Of a stretch of DNA of 32,000 nt, positions 1,701-28,882 are shown piece by piece. How positions within the stretch are numbered: the stretch's first letter is position 1; the number at the start of each line of letters is the position of its first letter. A model generated the notes under the pieces. That model worked only from the letters and a program-made list of their open reading frames with translations. It did no database searches and was not told the DNA's origin. Origin of the DNA: an uncultured archaeon (GTDB lineage: Archaea > Iainarchaeota > Iainarchaeia > Iainarchaeales > DATDZZ01); NCBI GenBank assembly GCA_964373795.1, contig CAYJVY010000001.1:39437-71436 (forward strand), given 5' to 3'. Both the position numbers and the translations under genes were made by a program.

Positions 1701-1746
1701 TCATATGAAACATAATTCATATATTCCTTGTTTGGAGAACTGTTTT

Positions 1747-2115
1747 ATGCAGATACTTGAATCGAAGCCGTATAATTTGTGTTTTGATACTCTTGCAAAC
1801 GAGTTAAGAATTAGTATTTTAAAGTCTTTAAGTAATGGATCTAAATCAGTTGAAGAAATAGTTAAAGAAACTCAGGCTGAACAATCCAGAGTTAGTCATT
1901 CACTGAAAATACTTAAAGTATGCAATTACGTTGAAGTGAAAAAAAAAGGAAAGCAACACATTTATTCCTTAAAAAAAGGTTTAACTGCTTCAACTCAAGT
2001 TAATACTAACAGCAAAAAACCATTGCATTTAGCTTTTCTAGATTACCATGTTGAAAACTTTTGCCATAATGAATGCAAAAAACACGAATTATTATCAGTA
2101 AATAAAAAGGAGTGA
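1747..2115 (+). CDS. ArsR/SmtB-family winged-helix transcriptional regulator (candidate suf cluster regulator)
   Basis: FDTLANELRISILKSLSNGSKSVEEIVKETQAEQSRVSHSLKILKVCNYVEVKKKGKQHIYSL matches the ArsR HTH plus wing. I prefer ATG 1747 (GGAG 9-10 nt upstream, downstream of the TATA-like box) over the ORF-track start at 1705, but 1705 remains possible. C-terminal CHNEC pair. Confidence 0.7.
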   Translation: MQILESKPYNLCFDTLANELRISILKSLSNGSKSVEEIVKETQAEQSRVSHSLKILKVCNYVEVKKKGKQHIYSLKKGLTASTQVNTNSKKPLHLAFLDYHVENFCHNECKKHELLSVNKKE

Positions 2116-2119
2116 AAAA

Positions 2120-2917
2120 ATGACTGCTTTAGAAATAATTGATTTACATGCAAGCGTGGAAGGAAAAGAAATCTTGAAAGGAATTAATTTAAGAATTGAA
2201 AAAGGAGAAATTCATGCAATCATGGGGCCAAATGGAAGTGGAAAAAGCACTTTATCAAACATTATAATGGGGCATCCAAAATATGAAGTCACTCAAGGAA
2301 AAATTTTCTTCAACGACAAAAATGTTTTAGGAATGACTCCAGATGAAAGAGGCAGAACAGGATTATTTTTATCTTTTCAATATCCTTTTGAAATTCAAGG
2401 ACTAGGTTTTACTAGATTTTTATTGGCAGCATTTAAGGCAAGGTTTCCTGAAAAAGAAATTAATCCACTTGACTTGCAAAAATTGTTAAAAGAAAAAGCA
2501 GAATTATTGCACTTCAAATCTGAAATGATTAGAAGAGAATTAAATGTAGGTTTTTCTGGAGGAGAAAAAAAACGCGCGGAAATTCTTCAAATGCTTGTAT
2601 TACAGCCTTCAATGGCTTTACTGGATGAAACAGATTCAGGACTAGATATTGATTCATTGAAATTAGTTTCCGATGCTGTTAACTCAATGCGTTCAAAAGA
2701 ATTCAGTGCATTAATTGTAACTCATTATAAAAGAATTTTAAATTACTTAAAACCAGATTTTGTTCACGTACTATGCAATGGAAAAATTATTGCTTCAGGG
2801 GATAAAACTTTAGCAGACAAATTAGAAGAAAAAGGATATAAAGAATTTTTAATTGAACAAGGAATTGAAGAAAAAGTTGTTAAAGAAGTAGAAAAAGCAG
2901 AGGAAACAAATGCCTGA
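2120..2917 (+). CDS. sufC: Fe-S cluster assembly ATPase SufC
   Basis: Walker [13 protein letters not shown] signature FSGGEKKR, Walker [13 protein letters not shown]. Soluble ABC ATPase with no TM domain. 8-nt overlap with sufB (ATGCCTGA). Confidence 0.9.
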
Positions 2918-4805
2918 AAACACTAAACAAGAAGTTTTAGCTTCTTCAAGAGATTACACTAAATATGACTTTCATTACAATACAAAAGACTATGATGTAA
3001 TTTTAGAAAAAGGATTAAATGAAGACATAGTTAAACAAATTTCTAAAATTAAAAACGAACCTCAATGGATGTTAGATTTTAGATTAAAAGCTTTAAAAGC
3101 ATTCATGGAAAAAGCAATGCCTTCATGGGGAGCTAATTTATCTAAGATTAATTTTGATGAAATAACTTATTACTTAAAGCCTTCAGGTGAAAAAAAAAGT
3201 TGGGAAGAAGTTCCTCAATACATTAAAGAAACATTTGACAGACTTGGAATTCCTGATGCTGAAAGAAAATTTTTAGCAGGAGTAGGAGCTCAAATTGATT
3301 CAGAAGTAGTATATCATAATATTAGAAAAGACTTAGAAAAACTTGGAGTAGTTTTTTTAAGCATGGATGAAGGATTAAAACAGTTTCCTGAAATAGTGAA
3401 AAAATATTTCGCAACAATTATTCCATTAAATGACAATAAATTTGCTGCACTAAATTCAGCTGTATGGAGTGGGGGAAGCTTTGTATTCATTCCTCCAAAC
3501 ACTAAAGTCCATATTCCTTTACAAGCATATTTCAGAATTAACGCTGAAAGAATGGGTCAATTTGAAAGAACATTAATTGTTGTAGGAGAAAACTCTCAAG
3601 TACATTACATTGAAGGCTGCTTTACTGCAGGAACTGAAATAAAAACTTATGAGAGTCCTAAAAAAATTGAGGAAATTAAAGTTGGCGAGAAAGTATTAAC
3701 TCATACAGGAGAATACAAAAAAGTTTATCACACTCAAGTAAGACCTTACACAGGAAAAATTTATTCAATTGAATATGTGATAAATGGAAAGAGTGTAAAA
3801 ACTGAGGCAACAGAAGAACATCCTTTTTTAGGTACAAAACAAAAAGAAGGAAAATTAGAATGGATTAATGCAAATAAATTACAACAACAAAATTATTTAG
3901 CAGTTTTATTAGAAAACACTCAAACAAGTGAAGAAATTTCAATTGGAAATCAACAAATGCTACAAAAAATTAACGCAAAATATGCATTTGTTCCAATAAA
4001 GAAAATCTCTGCTAAAGAAGTAGAAAATCTACCTGTATATAATTTTAGCGTAGAAAAAGATGAAAGTTATATTGCAAACGGCGTTGCAGTACATAACTGC
4101 ACTGCCCCACAATTTTCAAGTGATTCATTGCATGCAGCAGTTGTAGAAGTAATTGCTTTACCTGGAGCCCATGTAAGATATACTACAATTCAAAACTGGG
4201 CTGATAATATTTATAACTTGGTTACAAAAAGAGCTTATGCGTACAGGGATTCTACAGTGGAATGGATTGATTGTAATTTAGGTAGCCAAGTTACAATGAA
4301 ATATCCTTCTGTTTATTTAATGGAGGCAGGCTCGAAAGCAGAGATTTTAAGTGTAGCTTTAGCTGGAAAAAATCAGCACCAAGATGCTGGAGCAAAAGTA
4401 ATTCATTTAGCTTCAAACACTACTTCAAGAATTACAAGCAAAAGCATTAGCAAGGACGGAGGAAGAACTTCTTACAGAGGACAAGTAAAAGTGTATAAAG
4501 GAGCTAAAAACGTGAAATCAAATGTAGTATGTGATGCATTAATTTTAGATAAAGATTCTCGTTCAGATACTTATCCTTGCATTGATATTGATGAACCAAC
4601 TGCAACAATTGCTCATGAAGCAAGCGTTGGAAAAATCAGTGAAGAACAATTATTTTATTTAATGTCTAGAGGATTAAAAGAACAAGAAGCATTAACAATG
4701 ATTGTAATGGGTTTCATTCAACCATTTGCTAAAACCCTTCCAATGGAATATGCAATTGAATTAAACAGGTTAATTGAAGTGCAAATGGAAAACTCGGTTG
4801 GCTAA
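2910..4805 (+). CDS. sufB: Fe-S cluster assembly scaffold SufB, interrupted in frame by a 160-aa mini-intein
   Basis: Flanks of the insert join to [23 protein letters not shown] (the EGCTAP SufB motif). C-terminus [34 protein letters not shown] is typical SufB. 631 aa minus 160 leaves 471 aa of extein. Confidence 0.9.
3618..4097 (+). mobile_element. Mini-intein (Hint domain only, no homing endonuclease) in SufB
   Basis: It starts with Cys ([10 protein letters not shown], block A), has a TxxH block B (ATEEHPFL) and block F/G ([21 protein letters not shown]), and is followed by a +1 Cys (CTAP). Exactly 480 nt. Confidence 0.85.
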
Positions 4806-4835
4806 GCTTTTGAAACTGTTTCAACTGGTGAAAAA

Positions 4836-5999
4836 ATGCAGGAATTAAAATTAATTAAAACTTTTGCGCACGAACCTAAATGGCTTGAATTGTATAGAGA
4901 AAAAAATGCGCAAATAGTTAAAGAAAGGCCTTTGAAAAAACATTTATATTTTAATTTAAATGAATTAAATAAAGCAATTGAAAGCAAAGAAGTAAACAGC
5001 AATGCTGAAAATGTTTTGCCAAAAGAATTAGAAAAACTTGGATTAAAAGTAATGGATTGGAAAACTGCCTTGCAAAAAGTTGAATCTGAATTGCAAGCAA
5101 TTTTAGAAAACGAGCAAACAGCTAAAAACCAATTTGAAGCATTCATTAATGCAAACTTTAATTCTGGATTTATAGTAATTGTTCCAAAAAACTTTGATTC
5201 AAAAAAATTAATTGAATTAAATATTCGAGTTTCTGAAAACTGTATTGCCAAAAATATTTTTTTAATTGAAGAAAATATTCAAGGAATAAAAATTAGTGAA
5301 ACAATTGAAGGGCAAAAACTGTTTTGCAGCGAAGTAATTAAAGTAAAACCTGATTCAGAAATATTTTTTGTTCGAACTCATAATGAGAAAGGATTATGCT
5401 TTGCTTTTCAGCAAACAATTATTGAAAAAAATGCAAGGCTTCAAAACACTAATTTATGGATTGAAGCAGATTTCTTGAAAGGCGGAACAATTAATGCCTT
5501 GCATGGTCAAGGAGCAAATATACAGCAATTTGATTTAATTTTGTCAAACAAAAATCAAAAAGTTGATTTAAATCAAATGTTACTACATATTGCAACTGAT
5601 TCAACTAGTTTCAGTGTATTAAAAAACGTGTTATTTGATGAATCAAAAAATGTTTTTGATGGAATGATTAAAATTCTTCCTTCAGGGCAGAGAACTAATG
5701 CATTACTTCAAGCGCATTCAATTTTGTTGAGTGAGAATGCTTCAAGCAATAATTCTCCTGGACTAGAAATTGAAGCAGATGATGTAAAAGCAACTCATTC
5801 AGCTAGCGTTGAACAAATAGATGAAGAACAATTATTTTACTTACAGTCACGAGGAGTAAACAAACTTGAAGCAAAACAAATGATTGTATTAGGGTTTCTT
5901 GAAAGCATGGTAAATAAAATTCATGAAGAATTTCATGAAAAATTATTTAACGTGATTTCAAGTAAATGGAAAAAAATTCAAGGCGAAAAAAATGTTTAA
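4836..5999 (+). CDS. sufD: Fe-S cluster assembly protein SufD
   Basis: The C-terminal beta-helix/helical region THSASVEQIDEEQLFYLQSRGVNKLEAKQMIVLGF is paralogous to the SufB C-terminus. Position is between sufB and sufS. Confidence 0.85.
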   Translation: MQELKLIKTFAHEPKWLELYREKNAQIVKERPLKKHLYFNLNELNKAIESKEVNSNAENVLPKELEKLGLKVMDWKTALQKVESELQAILENEQTAKNQFEAFINANFNSGFIVIVPKNFDSKKLIELNIRVSENCIAKNIFLIEENIQGIKISETIEGQKLFCSEVIKVKPDSEIFFVRTHNEKGLCFAFQQTIIEKNARLQNTNLWIEADFLKGGTINALHGQGANIQQFDLILSNKNQKVDLNQMLLHIATDSTSFSVLKNVLFDESKNVFDGMIKILPSGQRTNALLQAHSILLSENASSNNSPGLEIEADDVKATHSASVEQIDEEQLFYLQSRGVNKLEAKQMIVLGFLESMVNKIHEEFHEKLFNVISSKWKKIQGEKNV

Positions 6000-7212
6000 T
6001 CCTGAAAAAGTTAGGGAAGATTTTCCAATACTGAAAAGAAAAATTAAGGGCAAGCCATTAATTTACTTAGATAATGCTGCTACAACTCAAAAACCAAGGC
6101 AAGTAATTGAGTCAATAGTGGATTATTATTCAAATTATAATGCAAATGTTCACAGAGGCTTGCATCAATTAAGTGAAGAAGCTTCTCAAGCATTTGAACA
6201 AGCTCATAAAAAAACAGCTGAATTCATTAATGCTAATTCAATACAGGAAATTGTTTTCACTAAAAACACTACTGAAGCATTAAATTTAGCTGCATATACT
6301 TTAACTCAAAATCTTTCAAAAGGAGACGAAATAGTGATTTCAAAAATGGAGCATCATTCAAATTTTGTTCCATGGCAGCAACTTGCTTTACAAAAAGGAT
6401 TAAAACTGAAATTCATTGAAGTAAACTCTAATGGAACTTTGAATTTGAATGACTTAAATGAATTGATTTCAAGGAAAACCAAGATTGTTTCAGTAAACTT
6501 TGTTTCAAATGTTTTAGGAACAATTAATGATGTAAAAAAAATTGAAAAAATTGCTCATGAAAATAATTCAATATTTGTAGTTGACGCGGCTCAAGCAGTT
6601 CCTCACATAAAAGTTGATGTAAAAAAATTGAATGCAGATTTCCTTGCCTTTTCAGGACATAAAATGCTTGGCCCTACAGGAATAGGAGTTTTATATGGAA
6701 AAAAACACATATTGGAAGAATTAAATCCATTCTTATTTGGAGGGGATATGATTTCAGAGGTTTCATTAAATGAAACTTCTTTCAATGAATTGCCTTGGAA
6801 ATTTGAAGCAGGCACTCCAAATATTGCTGGAGCAATTGGTTTAGCTGCAGCAATTGATTACTTGAATTTAATTGGATTGGAAAGCATTGAAAAACATGAA
6901 AAGGAATTGCTTAAATACTCTTTAGAAAAATTAAAAGAAATTGATGGAATAATTTTCTATGGATCTGAAGACTTAAATAATAGAACTGGAGTTATTTCAT
7001 TTAATTTGAAAGGCGTGCATCCACACGACGTTTCAACAATTTTAAATGAAAATGGAATAGCAATTAGAGCAGGAGATCATTGTGCTCAACCATTAATGAA
7101 AGAATTAGGAATAATCGGCTCGAATAGAATAAGTTTTTACTTGTACAACTTGAAAAAGGAAGTAGATGAAGTAGTGAAATCTTTAACTCAAACAATTAAA
7201 TTATTTAGGTAA
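5992..7212 (+). CDS. sufS: Cysteine desulfurase SufS (PLP-dependent, group II)
   Basis: YLDNAATTQKP N-terminus, PLP-lysine motif FSGHKMLGPTGIGVLYG, catalytic Cys loop RAGDHCAQPL. 8-nt overlap with sufD. Confidence 0.9.
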   Translation: MFNPEKVREDFPILKRKIKGKPLIYLDNAATTQKPRQVIESIVDYYSNYNANVHRGLHQLSEEASQAFEQAHKKTAEFINANSIQEIVFTKNTTEALNLAAYTLTQNLSKGDEIVISKMEHHSNFVPWQQLALQKGLKLKFIEVNSNGTLNLNDLNELISRKTKIVSVNFVSNVLGTINDVKKIEKIAHENNSIFVVDAAQAVPHIKVDVKKLNADFLAFSGHKMLGPTGIGVLYGKKHILEELNPFLFGGDMISEVSLNETSFNELPWKFEAGTPNIAGAIGLAAAIDYLNLIGLESIEKHEKELLKYSLEKLKEIDGIIFYGSEDLNNRTGVISFNLKGVHPHDVSTILNENGIAIRAGDHCAQPLMKELGIIGSNRISFYLYNLKKEVDEVVKSLTQTIKLFR

Positions 7213-7217
7213 ATTAA

Positions 7218-7643
7218 ATGAATTCACTTGAACAAGCAAACGAAATTTATTCAGAAATAATTTTAGATTTATTTAAACACCCAATTAATAAGGGTTTTTT
7301 AAAAGATTTTGACTTACAAGCATCTGGCGGAAACCCTATTTGTGGAGACAAAGTGCAATTCCAAGTAAAATTCTCAAACAACAAAGTTGAAGGAATTAAA
7401 TTCACTGGACAAGGATGCGCGATTTCAATGGCTTCGGCTTCAATGCTTACAGATTTAGTTAAAGGGAAAACAATTCAAGAAATAAAAAATTTAAATGAAA
7501 AAGACGTTTTTGAAGTTTTAGGAAACATTATTGAAACCAGAATTAAATGTTCTTTGCTTGGGTTAGTTGTTTTAAAGAAAGGCTTGGAAGAAATTGAAAA
7601 AAAGCCTGCAACAAAAGTCATAATTAGTTCAATTAAAATTTAA
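7218..7643 (+). CDS. sufU: SufU-type (IscU/NifU-like) sulfur transfer/scaffold protein
   Basis: Three conserved Cys contexts: GNPICGDKV, GQGCAISMASASML, RIKCSLLG. Immediately downstream of sufS. Confidence 0.85.
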   Translation: MNSLEQANEIYSEIILDLFKHPINKGFLKDFDLQASGGNPICGDKVQFQVKFSNNKVEGIKFTGQGCAISMASASMLTDLVKGKTIQEIKNLNEKDVFEVLGNIIETRIKCSLLGLVVLKKGLEEIEKKPATKVIISSIKI

Positions 7644-7651
7644 GTGAAAAA

Positions 7652-7870
7652 ATGAAGCTGCAAAAAATTTCTGAAACAAATACTGTAAGAGAAGTAATTG
7701 ATTCGTTTCCTGAAACAAAAAAAATTTTACTTAGACATGGAATTAATTGTATTGGTTGCCATGCAAGCTATGGTTCAACTATTGAACAAGCAATTTATTC
7801 AAGTGGAAAAAAATTTGTTGAATTAAATGAATTAATAAATGAATTAAATGAATCAATAGAGAAAGATTAA
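7652..7870 (+). CDS. DUF1858 / ScdA-N-like small CxxC protein
   Basis: TVREVIDSFPETKKILLRHGINCIGCHASYGSTIEQA resembles the DUF1858 domain found at the N-terminus of RIC/ScdA-type iron-centre repair proteins (recognition from memory). Confidence 0.55.
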   Translation: MKLQKISETNTVREVIDSFPETKKILLRHGINCIGCHASYGSTIEQAIYSSGKKFVELNELINELNESIEKD

Positions 7871-7911
7871 TAAAATTAAATCAATTAATTAATGCTTAAG
7901 GAGGACATTTA

Positions 7912-8166
7912 ATGGGTAAATACAAAATTGAACACGATCGCCCAAATTGCATTGGTTGCGCGGCTTGCGCTTCAGTTAACCCTGATTTTTGGGTAATGGA
8001 TGCAGACGGAAAATCAGACATAGTTGGAGGAAAAAAACTTCCAAATGGAGAAGAAGAATTGGATATTGAAGACAAGGATTTTAAATCAAATAAAGAAGCA
8101 GCAGATGTTTGCCCTGTAAACGTAATTCACATTCGCGATAAAGAACAAAATAAAAGAATAATTTAA
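7912..8166 (+). CDS. Small mono-cluster ferredoxin
   Basis: CIGCAACASVNP ... CPVNVIHI gives a CxxCxxC...CP ligand set for a single [4Fe-4S]/[3Fe-4S] cluster. GGAGG (7900-7904) precedes the start. Confidence 0.7.
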   Translation: MGKYKIEHDRPNCIGCAACASVNPDFWVMDADGKSDIVGGKKLPNGEEELDIEDKDFKSNKEAADVCPVNVIHIRDKEQNKRII

Positions 8167-8238
8167 TTTTTCAAAGCAAAGAGAGTTTTTAGTTGCTCAC
8201 CAAAAACACTTTAAAGATGTTTCTCTCTATTTAATTCA

Positions 8239-8979
8239 ATGATTGTTAAAGATGGAATTCCAACTCATTTAGGAAAACCAGAGCCATGGCATTTAAGAGA
8301 AGGCACTCTTTTAAGGCATTTTGTTTTCGGAGTAGAAGACGGATTAATTTCAACTTTGGGTTTTCTTGCAGGAGTTTCAGGAGCAGCTTTATCAAACCAA
8401 ATAATTTTGTTAGCAGGAGTTGCTGCAGCAGTTGCAGGAGCAATTTCTATGATGGCTGGAACTTATTTAAGTGTGAAATCAGAAAAAGAATTATATTTCT
8501 CTGAATTAGAAAGAGAAAAAAAAGAAATAAAAGAAATGCCTGAAGAAGAAAAAGCAGAAATACGAAAAATATTTGAAGCAAAAGGATTTAAAGGAAAAAA
8601 ACTTGACTTAATTGTTAAAACAATTTGCTCTGACGAACAATTATGGTTGGATGTAATGATGAAAGAAGAATTTGGATTAGTTGTTCCAGAAAATGAATCT
8701 CCATTAAAGTCTTCACTTGCAATGGGAGCTTCATTTGTAGTTGGAGCATTTTTTCCATTATCAGCTTACTTTATTTTTCCAAATCAATCAAATATAATAA
8801 TTTTTTCAATCATTATTACTGGAATAGCTTTATTTGCATTTGGAGCAATTAAAACAGTTTTCACCAAAAGAAATTTAATTAAAAGTGGAATTGAAATGTT
8901 AATTGTTGGATTAATTGCTTCAGGAATTGGATTTGCAATAGGAATACTTGTAAAAAACTATTTAGGAATAAATATTTAA
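8239..8979 (+). CDS. VIT1/CCC1-family iron (Fe2+/Mn2+) transporter
   Basis: FGVEDGLISTLGFLAGVSGA N-terminal motif, an acidic cytosolic helical insert (EKELYFSELEREKKEIKEMPEEEKAEI), and C-terminal TM helices. Confidence 0.75.
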   Translation: MIVKDGIPTHLGKPEPWHLREGTLLRHFVFGVEDGLISTLGFLAGVSGAALSNQIILLAGVAAAVAGAISMMAGTYLSVKSEKELYFSELEREKKEIKEMPEEEKAEIRKIFEAKGFKGKKLDLIVKTICSDEQLWLDVMMKEEFGLVVPENESPLKSSLAMGASFVVGAFFPLSAYFIFPNQSNIIIFSIIITGIALFAFGAIKTVFTKRNLIKSGIEMLIVGLIASGIGFAIGILVKNYLGINI

Positions 8980-8991
8980 AGGAGTGAAAAA

Positions 8992-10494
8992 ATGAAGGCA
9001 AACATTAAAACAGGATTTGAATTAAAAGAAAAAGCATTAAGTGTTTCACTTTTAAGTGACAGTTCATTAAATGAATTAAATAAAAAAAAGGTTTTAAATG
9101 AATTAGAAAAATTAATTCAAATAACAGTAAAAGATGAAGCGCTTGGAAAAAATGTGTCAAAAAGTATTTTCACTAAAATAGTGAAAAATTCCGCTCCATT
9201 AAATTTGTTAGTAATTGGTTTAGGGAAAGAAAAAGAATTAACTCTTGAAAAACTTAGAAGAAGTGTTTCAGGAATTACAAGCAAAGCTAGAGAACTTTCA
9301 TTAGAAGAAATTTCTCTTGAAGTTCCAAAACTAGAAAAATTTTCTTTCCAGGAAACTTTTACTGCTTTAAGTGAAGGATTAATTCTTGGAAGCTATTTAT
9401 TTGATAAATACAAAAATTATTCAAAAGATGAGCCAAAAAAAGAAGTGAAGAAATTGAATTTAATTGTTTCAGCAAACAATTCTAAAACAGCTGAAACATT
9501 GTTAAAAGAAGTTGAAACAATTACTGCAAATGTTTTCATGGTTAGAAACTTGCAAAACGATAACGCTGATGAAATAACTCCTTTAAAACTTGAACAAGTT
9601 TCCAAAGACATTGCTAAAAAATTTAATTTAAAAATCACTGTTTTAACTGAAAAAGAATTGAAAAAACTTGGAATGAATTTAGTTTTAGCAGTAAATCAGG
9701 GTTCAAAATTTCCTCCTAGAACAATAATACTTGAATTTAATGGAAACCCAAAAAGCAAAGAAGTTTACGCAATAGTTGGAAAAGGAATTACATTTGATTC
9801 AGGTGGATTAAATTTAAAGCCAACTGGGTATATTGAAACAATGCGAATGGATATGTCAGGAGCTGCAATTGTTTTGGGAACAATTAAAACCTTAGCTGAA
9901 TTAAAAGTTAAAGTAAATGTAATTGCTGCTTTAACTGCAACTGAAAACCTTATTGGAAAAGGGGCTTACAAACCAGGAGATGTATTCAGAGCATTTAATG
10001 GAAAAACAGTTGAAATAGGAAACACTGATGCAGAAGGCAGATTAATTTTAGCTGATACTCTAGCTTACTTGGAAAAAAACTTTAAACCAGATTTATTCAT
10101 TGACTTAGCTACTTTAACTGGTGCAATTAGAGTTGCATTAGGAGATGTTGTAGCAGGAATGTTTGGAAATTCAAAAGCTGAAAAGGCAATGAAAGAATTA
10201 TTTGAAGTAGGAGAAAAAACAGGGGAAAGAGTTTGGCAGTTACCATTATATGAAGAATTCAAAGAAGACTTGAAATCAGATTTTGCTGATATAACTAATT
10301 CAGGTAAAAGCAGAACAGCTGGAAGCATTAATGGAGCTTTATTCTTGCAAGAATTTGTTGGAGAAACTCCTTGGATTCACTTAGATATTGCTGGAACAGC
10401 AATGCCTGAAAAACCTTTAGGATATGTTCCAAAAAATGGTTCTGGATGGGGAGTGCGCTTGTTAACAGAATTCTTTAAAGAAAAACAAAAATGA
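8992..10494 (+). CDS. pepA: Leucyl aminopeptidase, peptidase family M17
   Basis: VGKGITFDSGGLNLKP and the M17 signature NTDAEGRLILAD. 500 aa. Confidence 0.9.
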   Translation: MKANIKTGFELKEKALSVSLLSDSSLNELNKKKVLNELEKLIQITVKDEALGKNVSKSIFTKIVKNSAPLNLLVIGLGKEKELTLEKLRRSVSGITSKARELSLEEISLEVPKLEKFSFQETFTALSEGLILGSYLFDKYKNYSKDEPKKEVKKLNLIVSANNSKTAETLLKEVETITANVFMVRNLQNDNADEITPLKLEQVSKDIAKKFNLKITVLTEKELKKLGMNLVLAVNQGSKFPPRTIILEFNGNPKSKEVYAIVGKGITFDSGGLNLKPTGYIETMRMDMSGAAIVLGTIKTLAELKVKVNVIAALTATENLIGKGAYKPGDVFRAFNGKTVEIGNTDAEGRLILADTLAYLEKNFKPDLFIDLATLTGAIRVALGDVVAGMFGNSKAEKAMKELFEVGEKTGERVWQLPLYEEFKEDLKSDFADITNSGKSRTAGSINGALFLQEFVGETPWIHLDIAGTAMPEKPLGYVPKNGSGWGVRLLTEFFKEKQK

Positions 10495-10498
10495 TTGA

Positions 10499-10906
10499 AT
10501 GCCTAGAAAAAGAATTTCAAGAAAAAATAAAACTACTAAAAGTGCTTCTGAAAGAAAGTTGCAAAACCCTAAAAAACCTAGTAAACTTGAAATTGAAAGA
10601 AGAAATATTGCTTACATTAGGAAAAACAATGAAAACCCTAAATGGAGGTCAACTGTGTTTTTCCAACCAGGACATTTTGTTACCTTGCAAAGAAGAGGTA
10701 ACACTTATTTTGGCAGAGTTGAAAATCTTGAAGGCTTTGAAGATGATTTAAAGATTGTAGCAAAGTTTACTCATAGAATTGATGCTCGAGGCAAATTTAG
10801 TTTATTAAAGGATTTTCTTGATGTAAGAAAAGCGCCTGTAACTGTGAGTGTTGGTTTTCGAAATCCAAGATTAAGGCGTTATATTAAAGAACCAAAAATA
10901 ATCTAA
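10499..10906 (+). CDS. Hypothetical highly basic protein (135 aa)
   Basis: ATG lies 4 nt after the pepA stop. Lys/Arg-rich N-terminal about 50 aa (MPRKRISRKNKTTKSASERKLQNPKKPSKLEIERR) followed by a beta-rich-looking C-terminal half. No family recognised. Confidence 0.5.
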   Translation: MPRKRISRKNKTTKSASERKLQNPKKPSKLEIERRNIAYIRKNNENPKWRSTVFFQPGHFVTLQRRGNTYFGRVENLEGFEDDLKIVAKFTHRIDARGKFSLLKDFLDVRKAPVTVSVGFRNPRLRRYIKEPKII

Positions 10907-11004: not shown

Positions 11005-12927
11005 ATGAGAAAATCCGCAGTAATTGTTTTCTTTGCGGTTTTACTAGTTTTCTTAGCCGTAAATGCATTTGCTACTGATATTGGTTCAAGAAACTCTTTA
11101 TGTGGTTATACTTCAGACCATTTAAACAAACCAAATGGCAGATGCGAACCAAACAAAGGAGAAACATCTGATACTTGCTACATTGATTGCTCTTATGTTA
11201 GTCCTTGTGGAGATCAATGGTGTCAAGGCTGGGAATTATATTCATGCCAGTATCCAAACAATCAATTAGATTCAAGCACTTGTGTGAAAAATGAAAACAA
11301 ATGTGGAGATTGTTCTTCTGTTTGCGGGGATGGGAGATGCGGAGAACTAGAATCCCTTGGATTTGCTTCAAGTCCTCAAACAAGATGGGATGGAACAATA
11401 ATTTATGCTTGCCCTCAAGACTGCAGACCTACTTCAACTTGTGGTAATGGAGTGTGTGAAAAAACCACAAATTATTATCCAGGCGAAGATCAAACAAGTT
11501 GTCCAAAAGACTGTGGATGTGGAACAGGTAAAAGCTTTGACTCAATAAGTGCAACATGTAAAACAAGCTCTGTTTGCGGAAACAAAGTATGCGAATCAGA
11601 TAATAAAACTTTTTTCCCTGTAGAGTCTCCGGCAAACTGTTTAATAGATTGTTCTTGCAATTCAGGGGAATACTTTGACTCAAGCACTGAAACTTGCAAA
11701 AAAATTCCTGAATGTGAAACTGGGACTGCCTTAAATGCAAACAATGTTTGTGTTCCAATTTGTTCTAAAAATAATCCAAGCGAATGTAAAACAAAAGAAG
11801 CATGCGAAGCGCAAAAAATTTATTGGTGTAAAAATCAATCAGGAATAGAAGCATGCTCTGCAACTCCTTGCACTATTGCTTGCAATGCAAACAATTTAAG
11901 TTCTTGCAACAGCAAAGAGAAATGTGAAACAGTAAAACTTTTTTGGTGCACTAAGGACAACAACAGTTATTGCTCTGTAACAGAATGTTCAAAGTGTTCA
12001 GCAAATAGTTTACAGTACTGTATTAATGCAAGTGATTGCGCGCAAGCAAAAGGAAAATGGTGCAAACAAGGCAATGATTTTTACTGCGCTGAATCTTCTG
12101 CTGACTGCCATGACAGAGAATCCCCAGAACCAGAAATAACTCCAAAAAACTTTAATCAGCAAATTCCTGCAATGGATTCAAACAATTTAGATGCAAACAA
12201 CAACCAAAAAAATTCAGGGCAAGAAATTCCAACAATAGACAAGCAACAACCAAATAAAACAGAAAAACAAGAAAAAACTGAAACAAATCCTAGTCAAGGA
12301 AGTTCAAGTAATGATTCAAGTGGAAGTGGAGTTAGCGAAAACCCACGCAGTGGAGGAAACACAGGCTCTGAAAAAGGTTTTGAAAAGATTACAAGAAAAA
12401 ATGAAACTCAAATAAAAGAAACAGAATTAGTTTCATCAAATGAAAAAGTAAATGAACCTGGAAGTGAAAAAAAAGTAAACCCATTAAACGAATTAAACCA
12501 ATCCAGTGAACCAACAAATTTTTGTGGAAACAGTGTTTGCGAAGAAAAAGAATCAAATTATAGTTGTGCAATTGACTGCCCTATTTTAGTCAGGGAAATA
12601 AAAGTTGGAAAAGTTACAAAAATTCCTTCTCAACAAGAAAAATTCGAAATAGCTAAAAAAGTTTCAACAGCAAAAAACAAGTTTGAAAAAGTTAAACAAA
12701 AATTGAAAACAATCAAAGAATATTACAAAAATTCAGGCAATAAAGAAAAAGAAAACAACATAATAATTGTTATAACAATTTTGGAATTAGGGCAAAAAAA
12801 TTTGGTGGAAAACGAGTCAAAATTGGTAAAATCTGAAAAACTAAGCACTGAAGAATTAACTGAAATAAAATATAATTTGAAATTTGTTTCAGAATTCTTA
12901 AAAGATGCTTTAGAAAAGCTTGGATGA
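11005..12927 (+). CDS. Secreted modular cysteine-rich surface/adhesin-like protein
   Basis: Signal peptide MRKSAVIVFFAVLLVFLAVNAFA. About 50 Cys by hand count in aa 33-368 and 507-525. Four CG[DN]xxC[EG]...CxxDC modules and three tandem C-x7-C-x5-C-x7-(W)C modules. Q/N/S/E/K low-complexity linker (aa about 370-505) and a C-terminal coiled-coil-like tail. Confidence 0.7.
   Translation: MRKSAVIVFFAVLLVFLAVNAFATDIGSRNSLCGYTSDHLNKPNGRCEPNKGETSDTCYIDCSYVSPCGDQWCQGWELYSCQYPNNQLDSSTCVKNENKCGDCSSVCGDGRCGELESLGFASSPQTRWDGTIIYACPQDCRPTSTCGNGVCEKTTNYYPGEDQTSCPKDCGCGTGKSFDSISATCKTSSVCGNKVCESDNKTFFPVESPANCLIDCSCNSGEYFDSSTETCKKIPECETGTALNANNVCVPICSKNNPSECKTKEACEAQKIYWCKNQSGIEACSATPCTIACNANNLSSCNSKEKCETVKLFWCTKDNNSYCSVTECSKCSANSLQYCINASDCAQAKGKWCKQGNDFYCAESSADCHDRESPEPEITPKNFNQQIPAMDSNNLDANNNQKNSGQEIPTIDKQQPNKTEKQEKTETNPSQGSSSNDSSGSGVSENPRSGGNTGSEKGFEKITRKNETQIKETELVSSNEKVNEPGSEKKVNPLNELNQSSEPTNFCGNSVCEEKESNYSCAIDCPILVREIKVGKVTKIPSQQEKFEIAKKVSTAKNKFEKVKQKLKTIKEYYKNSGNKEKENNIIIVITILELGQKNLVENESKLVKSEKLSTEELTEIKYNLKFVSEFLKDALEKLG
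11758..12108 (+). repeat. Three tandem 39-aa cysteine modules (protein-level repeat) within the surface protein
   Basis: ICSKNNPSECKTKEACEAQKIYWCKNQSGIEACSATPCT / IACNANNLSSCNSKEKCETVKLFWCTKDNNSYCSVTECS / KCSANSLQYCINASDCAQAKGKWCKQGNDFYCAESSADC. Shared spacing C-x7-C-x5-C-x7-C-x7/8-C-x4/6-C with a Trp before the fourth Cys. Confidence 0.75.
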
Positions 12928-15770: not shown

Positions 15771-16082
15771 ATGAATGAGCTTAGTAAAACAGTTAGTGAA
15801 TTAAAAGAAGCTGAAAAAGAAAAAACTTCCATTATTGAATCTGCTTTGAAAGAAAAAGAAGAAATAATTCAATCAGCTTTAGAAGAATCTAAGAAAACTA
15901 TAGAGGAAACTCAAAAACAGGCAACCCAACAACAAAACAAGTCCTTGGAAAAAGCCAGAAAACAATTAGATGAAGAAATTGAAAAAATTTCTAAAAAAGC
16001 TTTAAGCGATTCAGAAAAATTTTCTAAAACTAAAATGAACTCTTCTTTGAAAAAAAAATTAAGTGAAATAATAGAACTTTAA
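15771..16082 (+). CDS. atpH: A-type ATP synthase subunit H
   Basis: 103-aa Glu/Lys-rich helical protein at the first position of an H-I-K-E-C-F-A-B-D operon. Confidence 0.7.
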   Translation: MNELSKTVSELKEAEKEKTSIIESALKEKEEIIQSALEESKKTIEETQKQATQQQNKSLEKARKQLDEEIEKISKKALSDSEKFSKTKMNSSLKKKLSEIIEL

Positions 16083-20504: not shown

Positions 20505-22274
20505 ATGGGATTACTTCATAGAATTGTTGGGCCTGTAGTTGTAGCTGAAGGAATGAGAGGAGCAAAAATTTACGATGTTGTAAAAGTTGGAAAAGAAAAA
20601 TTAATTGGAGAAATAATTAAAATTAATGGAGATTTTGCAACAATTCAGGTTTACGAAGACACTTCTGGATTAATGCCTGGAGAAAAGGTTGAAAATACTG
20701 AAATGCCGTTAAGTGTTGAATTAGGCCCGGGTTTATTGCAAAATATTTATGATGGAATTCAAAGACCTTTAGAGGCAATTAAAAAAGAATCAGGAAACTT
20801 TATTTCAAGAGGAATTCAAGTAAACGCAATTGATAGAAAAAAGAAATGGGATTTCAAAGCAGCAGCGAAAAAAGGAGAAGAAGTTTCAGAAGGAGATGTT
20901 CTTGGAATAGTTCAAGAAACTTCTTTAATAGAGCACAGAGTTTTAGTTCCTCAAGGAATGAAAGGAAAATTAATTGAAATAAAATCAGGAAAATTCAATG
21001 TAGAAGAAGTAATTGCAGTAATCAAAACCATGGAAGGAGAAAAAGAAATTGCCATGCTTCAAAAATGGTTTGTAAGAAAGCCTAGAAGGGTTGTGGAAAA
21101 ACTTGCTCCAGATAATCCATTAATTACTGGAATGAGAATATTAGATACTTTTTTTCCAATAGCTAAAGGAGGAACTGCAGCAATTCCAGGACCGTTTGGC
21201 TCTGGAAAAACTGTAACGCAGCAAGCACTTGCGAAATGGTCTGACGCACAAGTAATTGTTTACGTTGGCTGTGGCGAGAGAGCGAATGAGATGGCCGAAG
21301 TTTTAATTGAGTTTCCACATTTAATAGATCCAAAATCAGGCAAGCCTTTAATGGAGAGAACAATTTTAGTTGCAAATACTTCAAACATGCCTGTAGCTGC
21401 AAGAGAGGCTTCTGTTTATACTGGAATAACTTTAGCAGAATATTATAGGGACATGGGTTATGATGTTGCTTTAATGGCTGATTCAACTTCTCGTTGGGCT
21501 GAAGCAATGAGAGAAATTTCTTCAAGACTAGAAGAAATGCCTGGAGAAGAAGGCTATCCTCCTTATTTGGCAAGAAAGTTAGCAGAGTTTTATGAAAGAG
21601 CTGGAAGAGCAATTTGTTTAGGAAAAGATAAAAGAAAGGGAAGCATTTCAGTAATTGGAGCTGTTTCTCCTCCAGGAGGAGATATCTCTGAACCAGTTTC
21701 TCAAAACACTTTAAGGGTTACAAAGGTTTTCTGGGCATTAGATGCAAAATTAGCTCAAAGAAGGCATTTTCCTTCAATTAATTGGTTAAAGTCTTACACT
21801 TTATATCAAAATTCTTTGAAAAACTTTTATGCAAACAATGTATCCGCGGACTGGAATGATTTAAGAAATAATGCAATGGGTTTACTGCAAAAAGAATCAG
21901 AGCTTCAAGAAGTAGTGCAATTAGTTGGCCCAGATGCATTGCCTGAAAAAGAACAAGCAATTTTGTTTACATCTAAAATGATTAGAGAAGACTTTTTACA
22001 GCAATCAGCTTTTCATGAAGTTGATACATACTCTTCTTTGAAAAAACAATATGCAATGCTGAAAACAATAATGCATTTCTATGAAAAAGCACTTAACTCA
22101 ATTGATTTAGGAGTTCAATTAAAAGCAATTACCTCATTAGAAGTAAAAAATTCAATTGCTAGAATGAAAGAAATTCCTGAAAAAGAGTTTGAGAAAAAAA
22201 TTTCAGACATTAATTCAGAAATTGATTCTCAATTTGAAAAACTATTGCATCACTTGCAAGTAATAACAAAATAA
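20505..22274 (+). CDS. atpA: A-type ATP synthase catalytic subunit A (no intein)
   Basis: Walker A GPFGSGKT, a non-homologous region insert typical of A subunits, and the [11 protein letters not shown] motif. 589 aa. Confidence 0.95.
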
Positions 22275-25781: not shown

Positions 25782-25819
25782 GTAAAACTGCAAAGGAGCA
25801 AATATTGAGAGGGAAAAAA

Positions 25820-28800
25820 ATGACTGAATTGAAGTTTATTCAAAAAAGAAACAAGGAAACAGTTAAATTTGATGAAACAAAAATAACTGAAGCTATTTGG
25901 AAAGCAGCAAAAGCTGTTGGAGGAAAAAGTAAGGAAGTATCAGAACAATTAACTAAAACAGTTGTAGAAGAATTAAAGAAAAATTTAAGAGAAGGAGAAA
26001 ATCCTTCAGTTGAATTTGTTCAAGACATTGTTGAAAAGGCTTTAATTGAATCAGGGCATGCTAAAACAGCTAAAGCATATATTTTGTATAGACAAGAAAG
26101 AGCAAAACTGAGAAAAGAAAAACAATTAGTGTTAGAAAAAAATGAGTTAGATGAAGTTGATAAAAGATTTGACGTAAACGCTTTAAGGGTTTTAAAGTCC
26201 AGATATTTAAAGAAAAACGAGGAAGGAAAATTAATTGAAACTCCAAAAGAATTATTTACAAGAGTTGCTGTTCATGCAGCTTTACCAGATTTATTGTATG
26301 ATGAAAAAATTTTTGACTTAAAAGCAAAGCAACCCACTTACTCAGTTGAAGAATTTAATGTAAAAGAAAACAATTTAAAATACTCTATTGGAATATTTGC
26401 TTTAAACGAATTCCATTTAGAGGCATTAAAAAGAATGTATGACAGAGCTTCAAAAAACAAGTCAATGAAGGTTTCTTGGAGTACTTTTGTAGGAATGCTT
26501 GATAAAGGAGAATTTGATTCATATGAAAAAAACATTGAAAAATTCTATAACGTAATGACTGAAAAACGATTCATGCCAAATACTCCTGCAATAGCAAATT
26601 TTGGAAGCTTTCTAGGAATGGGAAGTGCTTGTTTTGCTTTAGGCGTTGAAGACTCAATTGATGCAATAATGGAGACATTAAAAAGCGCAGCAATAATATT
26701 CAAATCAGGAGGAGGACTTGGATATAATTTCTCTAAATTAAGGCCTGAAGGAGACTTTGTTTCAACTACTTCAGGAGTTGCTTCAGGGCCACTAAGTTTT
26801 ATGACTTTATTTGATAAAATGACTGAAGTAATAAAACAAGGAGGAATTAGAAGAGGAGCAAACATGGGAATATTAAATTCAAACCACCCAGACATAGAGA
26901 GATTTGTTTTAGCAAAAGCAGGAAACAAGGCTTTAACTAACTTCAATATAAGTGTTTTAATAATGCCTGATTTCTGGGAACACTATCACAATGGAACTCC
27001 ATATCCTTTAAGAAATCCTAGAACAAATGAAATAGTGAAAACAGTTGATGCAAGACTATTATTTGACAGAATTGTTTACCAAGCATGGGAATCAGCCGAA
27101 CCAGGAGTAATATTTTTTGACAAAGTAAATGAAACAAACCCATTCTATGAATACTTAGGGCCAATAGTTACAACAAATCCTTGCTTTACAAAAGGAACTA
27201 AGATCAAAACAGAGAAAGGAGTTAAGTCAATTGAAGAAGTAAAAATTGGAGAAATTGTTTTAACACATCTTGGAAGATATAAAAAAGTTTACCACACACA
27301 AGTTAGGAGATATACTGGAAAATTATATATAATTGAGTATCAGCTAAATACAAAAACTGTAAGGATTGAAGCAACAGAGGAACACCCTTTTTTAAGCACA
27401 AAACAAAAAGATGGAAAACTAGATTGGATTAATGCAAATCAATTAGAAAAAGGAAATTATTTAGCAATGCCAATAGAAAACAGTAAAACATTTGAAAAAA
27501 TTTCGTTTGGAAGCCAACAAATGCTCCAAGAAATTAATGTAAAGTATAACTTAATTGAAATAAAAAGTATTGAAGGCAAGGATGTTAAAAGTTTGCCTGT
27601 ATATAATTTTGCCGTAGAAGAAGATGAAAGTTATATTGCAAATGAGGTCGCAGTGCACAATTGCGGAGAAGTATTACTTTATCCAAATGAGCCATGCAAT
27701 TTAGGAAGCATTAATGTTCAATTCTTTGCAAAAGATGATGAAACTGGTAAAACATTTTTTGACTGGGAAGGATTAAAAGAAACAATTTTTACTTGCACAA
27801 GGTTTTTAGACAACGTAATAGATGTAAATAATTTTCCCTTGCCTGCAATTGAAGAAATGGCTTTAAAGACAAGAAAAATTGGTTTAGGAATAATGGGTTT
27901 AGGAGACTTAATGTATGAATTAAGAATCCCATTCAATACAGAGGAAGGAAGAAAATTCATGGAACAATTAATGGAATTCGTAAACTATTACTCTAAAGTT
28001 GAATCAATTGAATTAGCTAAAACAAGAGGAAAACTTCCATTATATGATCAAAGTTTTTACAAAGAAGGAAGACTTCCATTTAAAGGATTTGATTCACCAA
28101 AAGACTGGCATTTTGATTGGAATGAAATCTCTGAAAAAATTAAAACAATTGGAATAAGAAACGGGTATACAACAATTATTGCTCCAACTGGAAGCATTTC
28201 AATGATTGCAGGAACAAGTTCTGGAATGGAGCCAGTATACAGTTTAGTGTTTGAAAAAAACGTTAAAGTTGGATCGTTTTTTTATGCAGATCCAGTATTT
28301 GAAAAAGCAATGAAAGAAGAAGGATTATACGATGAAAAACTAATGGAAGAAATATGCAATAACTGCGGAAGCGTTCAAAGCATTCCATATGTTCCTCAAA
28401 GCTTAAAAGATTCATTTGTAACTGCAATGGACATTACTCCAGAAGAACACATTAGAGCATTAGCTTCATTCCAAAAATGGACTGATTCAAGTATTTCAAA
28501 AACAAACAATTTTCCAGCAAATGCAACAGTTGAGGACATGAGGCAAAGCTATTTACTTGCATATCAACTTGGATGCAAAGATGTAACTGTTTTCAGAGAC
28601 TCTTCAATTAAAAACCAGGTATTAAATGCTCCAAAGAAAAAAGAAGAACAAGAAACAAGTGAGCAAACAGAGTTAAAGAAAACTGAAACAAAGCCAAACA
28701 CTTTAACTGGAACAACAACTATTACTGCTAGTTCCGCTGTTACTTCAACTAAGACAAGTAAAGCAGTAATTGGTTCAAGTCCAAGATATGAACTAAAAAA

Positions 28801-28882
28801 CTGCCCTGAATGCAGTACCTCTCTTCAATTCAAAGAAGGGTGTGTAACTTGTCTTGGATGCGGATGGGGTTTATGCAAGTAA
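25820..28882 (+). CDS. nrdJ: Class II (adenosylcobalamin-dependent) ribonucleotide reductase with ATP-cone, interrupted by a 160-aa mini-intein
   Basis: N-terminal ATP-cone ([18 protein letters not shown]...YILYRQERA). Thiyl-radical loop [22 protein letters not shown] is restored on removing 27182-27661. C-terminal zinc ribbon [28 protein letters not shown] 25820 with a GAGG SD is preferred over the TTG at 25805. Confidence 0.9.
27182..27661 (+). mobile_element. Mini-intein (Hint domain only) in the class II RNR, paralogous to the SufB intein
   Basis: [10 protein letters not shown] (block A), ATEEHPFL (block B), [21 protein letters not shown] (blocks F/G), +1 Cys of CGE. Exactly 480 nt. Aligns without gaps to 3618-4097. 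Confidence 0.85.

Follow-up and report, generated by a model that had tools for sequence, protein, structure and literature searches.

The window analysed here, a 32,000-nt stretch of contig CAYJVY010000001.1 from an uncultured archaeon, carries two genes that are each interrupted by an in-frame insert with the features of a class-1 mini-intein. The sufB precursor gene (2910-4805, + strand; 631 aa, identical to P0271) consists of an N-extein (2910-3617), the insert (3618-4097, +) and a C-extein (4098-4805). The nrdJ precursor gene (25820-28882, +; identical to P0151), which encodes a class II ribonucleotide reductase (RNR), consists of an N-extein (25820-27181), the insert (27182-27661, +) and a C-extein (27662-28882). 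Its open reading frame (ORF) spans 1020 aa, or 1025 aa from an alternative TTG start at 25805 (+). Both inserts are 480 nt and translate to 160 aa with Cys at position 1 and His-Asn at the end, and the next residue in each host is again Cys. With slashes marking the splice junctions, the contexts are YIEG/C...HN/CTAP in SufB, which is the classical SufB site (HYIEG/CTAP), and TTNP/C...HN/CGEV in NrdJ. The +1 Cys codon of SufB (4098-4100, +) belongs to the conserved EGC[ST]AP motif, and that of NrdJ (27662-27664, +) to the conserved NPCGE motif, whose Cys is the thiyl-radical active-site Cys of RNR (PMC2677866 and established RNR knowledge). In-silico excision produced a 471-aa SufB with an uninterrupted VHYIEGCTAP, as in 21 of 22 intein-free homologues, and an 860-aa NrdJ with an uninterrupted TTNPCGEV, matching intein-free homologues. 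The NrdJ host protein comprises an ATP-cone, the RNR all-alpha and barrel domains and a C-terminal Cys-rich tail.

The two translations aligned by BLASTP without a gap at 108/160 identical and 134/160 positive residues (E=2e-81), exactly the identity counted by hand in an earlier note on this DNA, and the shared runs, coordinates and junction contexts quoted there were all present. At the DNA level, the inserts were identical at 357/480 positions (74.4%; 76, 83 and 64% at codon positions 1, 2 and 3). Pfam Intein_splicing matched the two inserts at 45.6 and 41.8 bits (cut-off 35.8), and Hint_2 was above its cut-off in both. Cys1, the TxxH of block B, block F, the terminal His-Asn (VAVHN) and Cys+1 are all kept in both copies; block B of the NrdJ intein, T65-E-E-H68 as read from the translations, lies at 27374-27385 (+) and its SufB counterpart at 3810-3821. 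With a nucleophile at positions 1 and +1, the block B, F and G motifs, and an excision that restores the host motif, both inserts are, judged by sequence, class-1 mini-inteins that are predicted to splice. Pfam found no endonuclease domain in either 160-aa insert, and neither holds the nested LAGLIDADG or HNH domain of a homing intein, in agreement with the earlier note; relatives with PF14528 are 360-390 aa long. Inteins without a homing endonuclease cannot home and, because both window copies are without one, the present copies cannot home. A search of the window for a third copy found none. An AF2 model of the intein, built from a two-sequence alignment, had a mean pLDDT of only 67. Foldseek matches of that model in the PDB at E<=1e-3 were all inteins, bacterial-intein-like (BIL) domains or hedgehog HINT domains (target TM 0.55-0.68), and a PDB sequence search with the two-sequence profile gave no match at E<=1e-3. 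The two inserts themselves are ordinary inteins and not a new type of molecular system.

At the SufB site, HYxEG/C[ST]AP, inteins of the same family were found in more than 100 relatives, mostly as LAGLIDADG forms of approximately 380 aa. Among the 120 best SufB matches, the window's own protein counted in, 88 had a 360-390-aa intein with a precomputed LAGLIDADG_3 domain in a protein of approximately 830-880 aa; the remainder comprised 8 of the mini-intein size class, 22 intein-free proteins and 2 with two inteins. The SufB copy of the window lies at this site, and the NrdJ copy, in NrdJ, does not. Because the His at -5 is conserved, the window site is that of the Mycobacterium tuberculosis SufB intein, which is 359 aa long with an endonuclease present (PMC8891592). 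Over the splicing domain, the window copies were 50-55% identical to SufB-site inteins (the full-length P0001, P0281 and P0275 among them), and the closest relatives of both were LAGLIDADG inteins of 381-388 aa. SufB (Pps1) inteins, including that of M. tuberculosis and the collected DPANN and bacterial ones (P0001, P0275, P0281, L001-L003 and L030), have the same class-1 chemistry as the window copies (Cys1, block-B His, His-Asn and Cys+1). Unlike these inteins, the window copies are without LAGLIDADG and have a unique set of four indels, and one of the two copies sits outside SufB.

The thiyl-radical Cys of NrdJ is the most frequent intein insertion point in RNRs (PMC2677866), and it is normally held by another intein family. 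Among the 119 closest other NrdJ homologues, the TTNP/CGEV site was filled in 44 by inteins of the type CV[AT]GDTLISTENG...HSFIANGIVVHN, of which 17 were mini-inteins (approximately 140-147 aa) and 27 were full-length (approximately 392 aa). This native family, found in Woesearchaeota and Nanoarchaeota, shares its insertion point and its Cys1/Cys+1 chemistry with the window NrdJ copy but is set apart from it by lineage: it scored approximately 2 bits against a profile of the two window inteins, was approximately 30% identical to either copy (38/126) and differed by several indels. A chimera of a native NrdJ intein and a SufB intein was considered as an origin of the NrdJ copy and rejected, since neither over its length nor at its two termini does that copy come nearer to the native family than its SufB counterpart does. 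A second NrdJ intein site, GMGSA/CF (GMGSA/CFALG at window positions 26600-26640), was filled in 21 of the 119 homologues and is empty here; an intein at the thiyl-radical Cys accompanied it in 12 of those 21. The inteins at this second site scored 36-69 bits against the window profile, over the N-terminal part or the whole domain, and are moderately related to the SufB family.

Searches for relatives of the two inserts led back to the SufB site. Among 390 collected proteins, the top non-self BLAST match of each window intein was the other copy, at 228 bits, followed only by SufB-site inteins at 195 bits or less. When 1.84 billion representative proteins were searched exhaustively with a profile, 6652 HINT-containing proteins were recovered; the eight best individual inteins were all at the SufB site, and none of the 276 intein units extracted from this search occupied an NP/C../CGE site. 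Used by itself as the query, the 160-aa intein gave no match in a word-indexed protein search. Scanning GTDB genomes, IMG/VR and JGI metagenomes with patterns brought up no copy nearer than approximately 54%, and the scan matches that were at least 43% identical over roughly 100 or more residues were all SufB-site inteins. The earlier note had proposed looking for further copies, for full-length relatives and for intein-free alleles; endonuclease-bearing full-length relatives and intein-free SufB and NrdJ homologues were found, and no further close copy was found in the searched collections.

A neighbour-joining (NJ) tree was built from 172 splicing domains (144 columns, 300 bootstraps) that comprised, besides the window pair, 88 SufB-site, 25 native NrdJ-site, 20 GMGSA/CF-site and 37 other-host inteins. 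The window inteins were sisters to each other in 296 of 300 bootstraps, and not to the native NrdJ-site inteins, a relationship that the earlier note had proposed to test. The pair fell inside a 27-leaf clade together with 24 SufB-site inteins and one other-site intein. On the tree columns, identity was 0.70 within the window pair, and the NrdJ copy reached 0.61 or less with SufB-site inteins, 0.45 or less with any other-site intein and 0.29 or less with native NrdJ-site inteins. Best matches, profile search and NJ tree therefore agree in grouping both copies with SufB-site inteins. Relative to full-length SufB inteins, both copies have the same four indels: one residue gained, 7 residues lost, the deletion of the endonuclease and a loss of approximately 11 more residues. 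Approximately 11 other SufB mini-inteins (151-186 aa) do not share them, and their end points all differ. Compared with a consensus drawn from the 20 nearest SufB-site inteins, the SufB copy had 10 unique changes and the NrdJ copy 21. Taken together, the best matches, the unrelatedness to the native NrdJ-site family, the tree, the shared indels and the consensus distance indicate that the SufB site is home to the family and that, of the two copies, the one in NrdJ is derived and ectopic.

These comparisons led us to regard as likely a single, in-frame copying of a SufB-lineage intein into the non-homologous nrdJ site, that is, an ectopic, non-allelic invasion from SufB to NrdJ. Each of the two inteins, which are paralogues at non-homologous, non-allelic sites of one genome, is nearer to the other than to the allelic inteins of other genomes. 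The earlier note had argued from the premise that inteins at different sites are as a rule distant relatives, which is the accepted view (PMC1635734, PMC4071816). Ectopic movement between genes, one of the three explanations that it listed, stands as the best one, and the direction is added here.

Several points weigh against this interpretation. The tree is distance-based and drawn from short sequences, its deeper nodes are weak, only 173/300 replicates gave a nearest clade of at least 8 leaves made up entirely of SufB-site inteins, and one non-SufB intein falls inside the SufB-site clade of the best tree. The relative-rate asymmetry between the copies is weak, with chi2 values from 0 to 3.5 for individual outgroups. 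No second genome with the NrdJ copy was found in the searched collections, and the event can be neither dated nor placed on the host tree. Splicing of both precursors is predicted from sequence. Finally, the target DNAs (±21 nt) share only the TGC codon; of the other 39 positions 13 matched, compared to 11.5±3.0 expected (P=0.36). Target-site similarity, which would be expected had an endonuclease cut a degenerate site, was accordingly rejected, although a pair can count as an ectopic transfer without it; no feature of the flanking DNA explains the choice of the nrdJ site.

The two copies have been separate for a long time. Overall, nonsynonymous divergence (dN) between the inserts was 0.22 and synonymous divergence (dS) 0.92, and the resulting dN/dS of approximately 0.24 corresponds to purifying selection. 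At 106 identical degenerate amino acids, 70 codons were identical; since host codon usage alone predicts 62.5, synonymous sites are near saturation and the duplication is old. The description of the pair as closely related in the earlier note is thus a relative one: synonymous sites are saturated over two thirds of the length, and the event is ancient. The divergence was uneven along the inserts (permutation scan statistic, P=0.02): codons 1-68 had a dS of 1.66 and a dN of 0.23, codons 69-107 a dS of 0.16 and a dN of 0.20, and codons 108-160 a dS of 1.22 and a dN of 0.21. In the 39-codon tract, dS is approximately 10 times below that of the flanks and dN is unchanged. The tract lies at 27386-27502 (+) in the NrdJ intein and 3822-3938 (+) in the SufB intein; it includes the place of the common 7-aa deletion and stops at the junction where the endonuclease was deleted. 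What the data hint at, and what would explain the tract most simply, is a later gene conversion between the copies followed by near-neutral change in this surface and linker region; nucleotide-level constraint may be an alternative cause. Because the low-dS tract adjoins the junction, the identical deletion end points are no proof that the intein was endonuclease-less when it moved, and mobility without an endonuclease is not proven by this pair.

A sequence of events consistent with these observations can be proposed. A member of the SufB-site family would have been copied long ago into nrdJ, directly before the Cys of NPCGE, either in this DPANN-like archaeal lineage or in the donor of its nrdJ. 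The most likely route would be a double-strand break in nrdJ, at its Cys codon or close by, and illegitimate repair of that break from a sufB intein copy, with selection letting only a precise in-frame product survive. Candidates for the source of the break are the intein's own former endonuclease acting off-target, the native NrdJ-intein endonuclease of related archaea, and chance. At least one gene-conversion exchange between the copies would have followed the jump, and both copies would then have been inherited vertically. Both would persist because a splicing-impairing mutation or an imprecise deletion would inactivate an essential enzyme, so that purifying selection maintains them.

Whether the intein that moved already lacked its endonuclease divides this interpretation into two possible histories, each of which we hold tentatively and to which we give roughly equal weight. 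The intein may have been miniaturised once in sufB and then copied without an endonuclease into nrdJ through a break of other origin. That break could have come from a trans-acting or free-standing homing endonuclease, from the endonuclease of the native NrdJ-site intein that circulates among related archaea, or from chance. Parsimony favours this history as an account of the four common indels, including the identical endonuclease-deletion end points, as the other SufB mini-inteins all have different end points. Native inteins with an endonuclease are also known to target the nrdJ site, where 27 of the 44 inteins are full-length. However, the copies probably exchanged sequence beside the deletion junction, so the junction need not predate the jump, and no known mechanism mobilises mini-inteins, which are mainly transferred vertically (PMC4071816). 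A domain scan of the 32-kb window also detected no endonuclease domain in any ORF of at least 100 aa, and the trans-mobilisation raised in the earlier note found no support here. It is equally conceivable that an endonuclease-bearing SufB intein cut nrdJ off-target and was copied into it, and that a deletion arising in one copy was later shared by gene conversion. The nearest relatives of both copies are full-length LAGLIDADG inteins, the low-dS tract ends at the junction, and off-target cleavage is the usual proposal for ectopic homing (PMC1635734). This history needs an extra event, however, and the two target sites are no more alike than random sequence; C-terminal of the junction synonymous identity is not clearly raised (8/12 informative codons, read by eye), the significance of the tract is modest, and dN inside it is not reduced. 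The stronger proposal, that endonuclease-less mini-inteins are not evolutionary dead ends and that this one colonised a new essential gene after endonuclease loss, is in our view doubtful. Within that doubtful proposal, the breaks may have come from the native NrdJ intein endonuclease at the hot spot or from a trans-acting one encoded elsewhere, and the conservation of codons 69-107 could mark a DNA segment of mobility or of ongoing exchange.

Three further explanations fare less well. Parallel, independent loss of the endonuclease with identical end points, by chance or under structural constraint, was one of the options listed in the earlier note and is very improbable: endonuclease loss is recurrent in the SufB family, which has at least 11 independent mini-inteins, but every junction among those is different, and three small indels away from the endonuclease region are common to the window pair as well. 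That the jump occurred in another organism, with an nrdJ allele already carrying the SufB-type intein gained horizontally and the pairing in this genome partly coincidental, is improbable, though less so than parallel loss. Intein-bearing alleles do move horizontally (PMC4071816), and no sister genome with the NrdJ copy was found in the searched collections; nevertheless, across every collection searched the NrdJ copy was closest to the SufB copy of the same genome, the guanine-plus-cytosine (GC) content of the inteins (29%) fits that of the host genes (32%) and the window (30%), and the low-dS tract implies physical exchange inside one genome. Convergence, a flawed hand alignment or an assembly chimera is refuted by the gapless software alignment and by a DNA identity of 74% with common indels, a value too low for mis-assembly. 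In addition, the first 6.7 kb of the window, which includes the sufB intein, recurs at 100% and 99.96% nucleotide identity in two independent Logan assemblies, and the SufB copy is therefore not an assembly artefact.

Homing depends on homology of the flanking DNA, and ectopic movement of inteins is for that reason considered very rare; even inside a single species, an intein resembles its alleles more than it resembles inteins at other sites (PMC1635734). Across 118 haloarchaeal genomes, at most one ectopic invasion was supported, and the authors of that survey regard mini-inteins as passed on mainly by vertical descent (PMC4071816). Intragenomic transfer has been proposed for fungal glutamate synthase and chitin synthase (GLT/CHS) inteins, with 48-57% similarity, and for chloroplast DdRP/ClpP inteins (PMC5784728), and the Cre RPB2/ThrRS inteins are a further proposed ectopic case; similarity of flanking DNA was not noted for the RPB2/ThrRS and RPB2/ClpP cases (PMC1635734). 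Like the GLT/CHS, DdRP/ClpP and RPB2/ThrRS pairs, the window inteins are non-allelic, sit in unrelated hosts and are closest to each other, and as with GLT/CHS they occur in the same genome. At 84% positives and 68% identity, the window pair is more alike than the fungal one. In contrast to the earlier ectopic cases, it is archaeal, both copies are endonuclease-less with a common deletion architecture, the donor family and the direction are identifiable, and the copy landed in a hot spot that usually carries inteins of another family.

The earlier note had also suggested that both hosts might be gated by the same redox-sensitive splicing step. Redox-responsive inteins include the M. tuberculosis SufB intein, whose stress sensitivity is cited in PMC4760082, and the DnaE 'redox trap' (3nzm, listed among the Foldseek matches). 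As in these, Cys1 and Cys+1 are present in the window copies and the hosts use cysteine chemistry. Unlike redox-trap inteins, the window copies are without Cys at -3 (the N-exteins end IEG and TNP) and without an internal Cys, which leaves only Cys+1 available. A special shared redox gate is not indicated, as Cys1 and Cys+1 are common to the whole SufB and native NrdJ families and no feature sets the window copies apart from other inteins with these residues; redox gating of these two inteins is speculation.

Two other groups of HINT domains came up in the searches. Second to the SufB-site inteins in their match to the window profile came mini and full-length inteins in the catalytic Pro-Cys motif of DNA cytosine-5 methyltransferases (GGFP/C...HN/CQSFS; P0045, P0061, P0062, P0071, P0072, P0100, P0104 and P0113), and these methyltransferase-site inteins may represent another, older link between non-allelic sites. 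L012, a locus in a Woesearchaeota metagenome-assembled genome, encodes two large, Cys-rich, apparently secreted proteins (4810-6435, +, and 6484-10659, -) with terminal HINT domains, CFLAGTEIETEFGSKSIEEIKIGERV... and CFAKDTKISTP..., which are followed by short tails and not by a host C-extein. The initial 28 residues of the first of these domains are 71% identical to the window intein; this short match proved to be the C-terminal HINT domain of a secreted Cys-rich protein and was rejected as an intein relative. The L012 modules look like bacterial-intein-like or pretoxin-HINT domains rather than true inteins.

The genes of the window all lie on the + strand, in the order ArsR-type regulator, SufC, SufB, SufD, SufS, SufU, VIT1, M17 aminopeptidase, an A/V-type ATPase operon, an HD protein, NrdJ, corrinoid adenosyltransferase, dCTP deaminase, a periplasmic binding protein and a NUDIX protein. 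Among named proteins, the nearest relatives of NrdJ and SufB carry the annotations Diapherotrites, Woesearchaeota and Nanoarchaeota; judged by these best matches, the DNA is probably that of a DPANN archaeon. The suf cluster (1705-7643, from the ArsR-type regulator gene to sufU) stands beside markers that look DPANN-archaeal, namely the A-type ATPase operon and the NrdJ and SufB relatives. Inteins of the same family occur in SufB relatives of both DPANN archaea and bacteria (Anaerolineae, Deltaproteobacteria and Omnitrophica), which suggests that the SufB gene or its intein was exchanged between domains. Pfam shows no intein domain in the catalytic A subunit of the ATPase (20505-22274, 589 aa). 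The NrdJ C-terminus (28640-28882) consists of a low-complexity Thr/Ser/Lys-rich linker and a Cys-rich tail (CPEC...) that seems to resemble the C-terminal zinc finger found in many class II RNRs. Four ORFs, all on the + strand, had no Pfam match at E<=1e-3: 11005-12927 (640 aa, the largest unannotated gene of the window), 860-1477 (205 aa), 10499-10906 (135 aa) and 15771-16082 (103 aa). Rfam and tRNA scans of the window were empty.

Ectopic invasion is the step that creates new intein 'alleles', and it has been documented by few, weakly supported cases (PMC1635734, PMC4071816, PMC5784728). To these the window pair adds a donor family, a recipient site usually held by another family, a direction and a hint of later conversion. 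It is a further, cleaner example of a known rare phenomenon and not a new kind of element. The pair is also a natural experiment on extein dependence, in which a 68%-identical splicing domain, predicted to be active, sits in IEG/C../CTA in one host and in TNP/C../CGE in the other, and such a two-context pair is of practical interest for the engineering of promiscuous mini-inteins.

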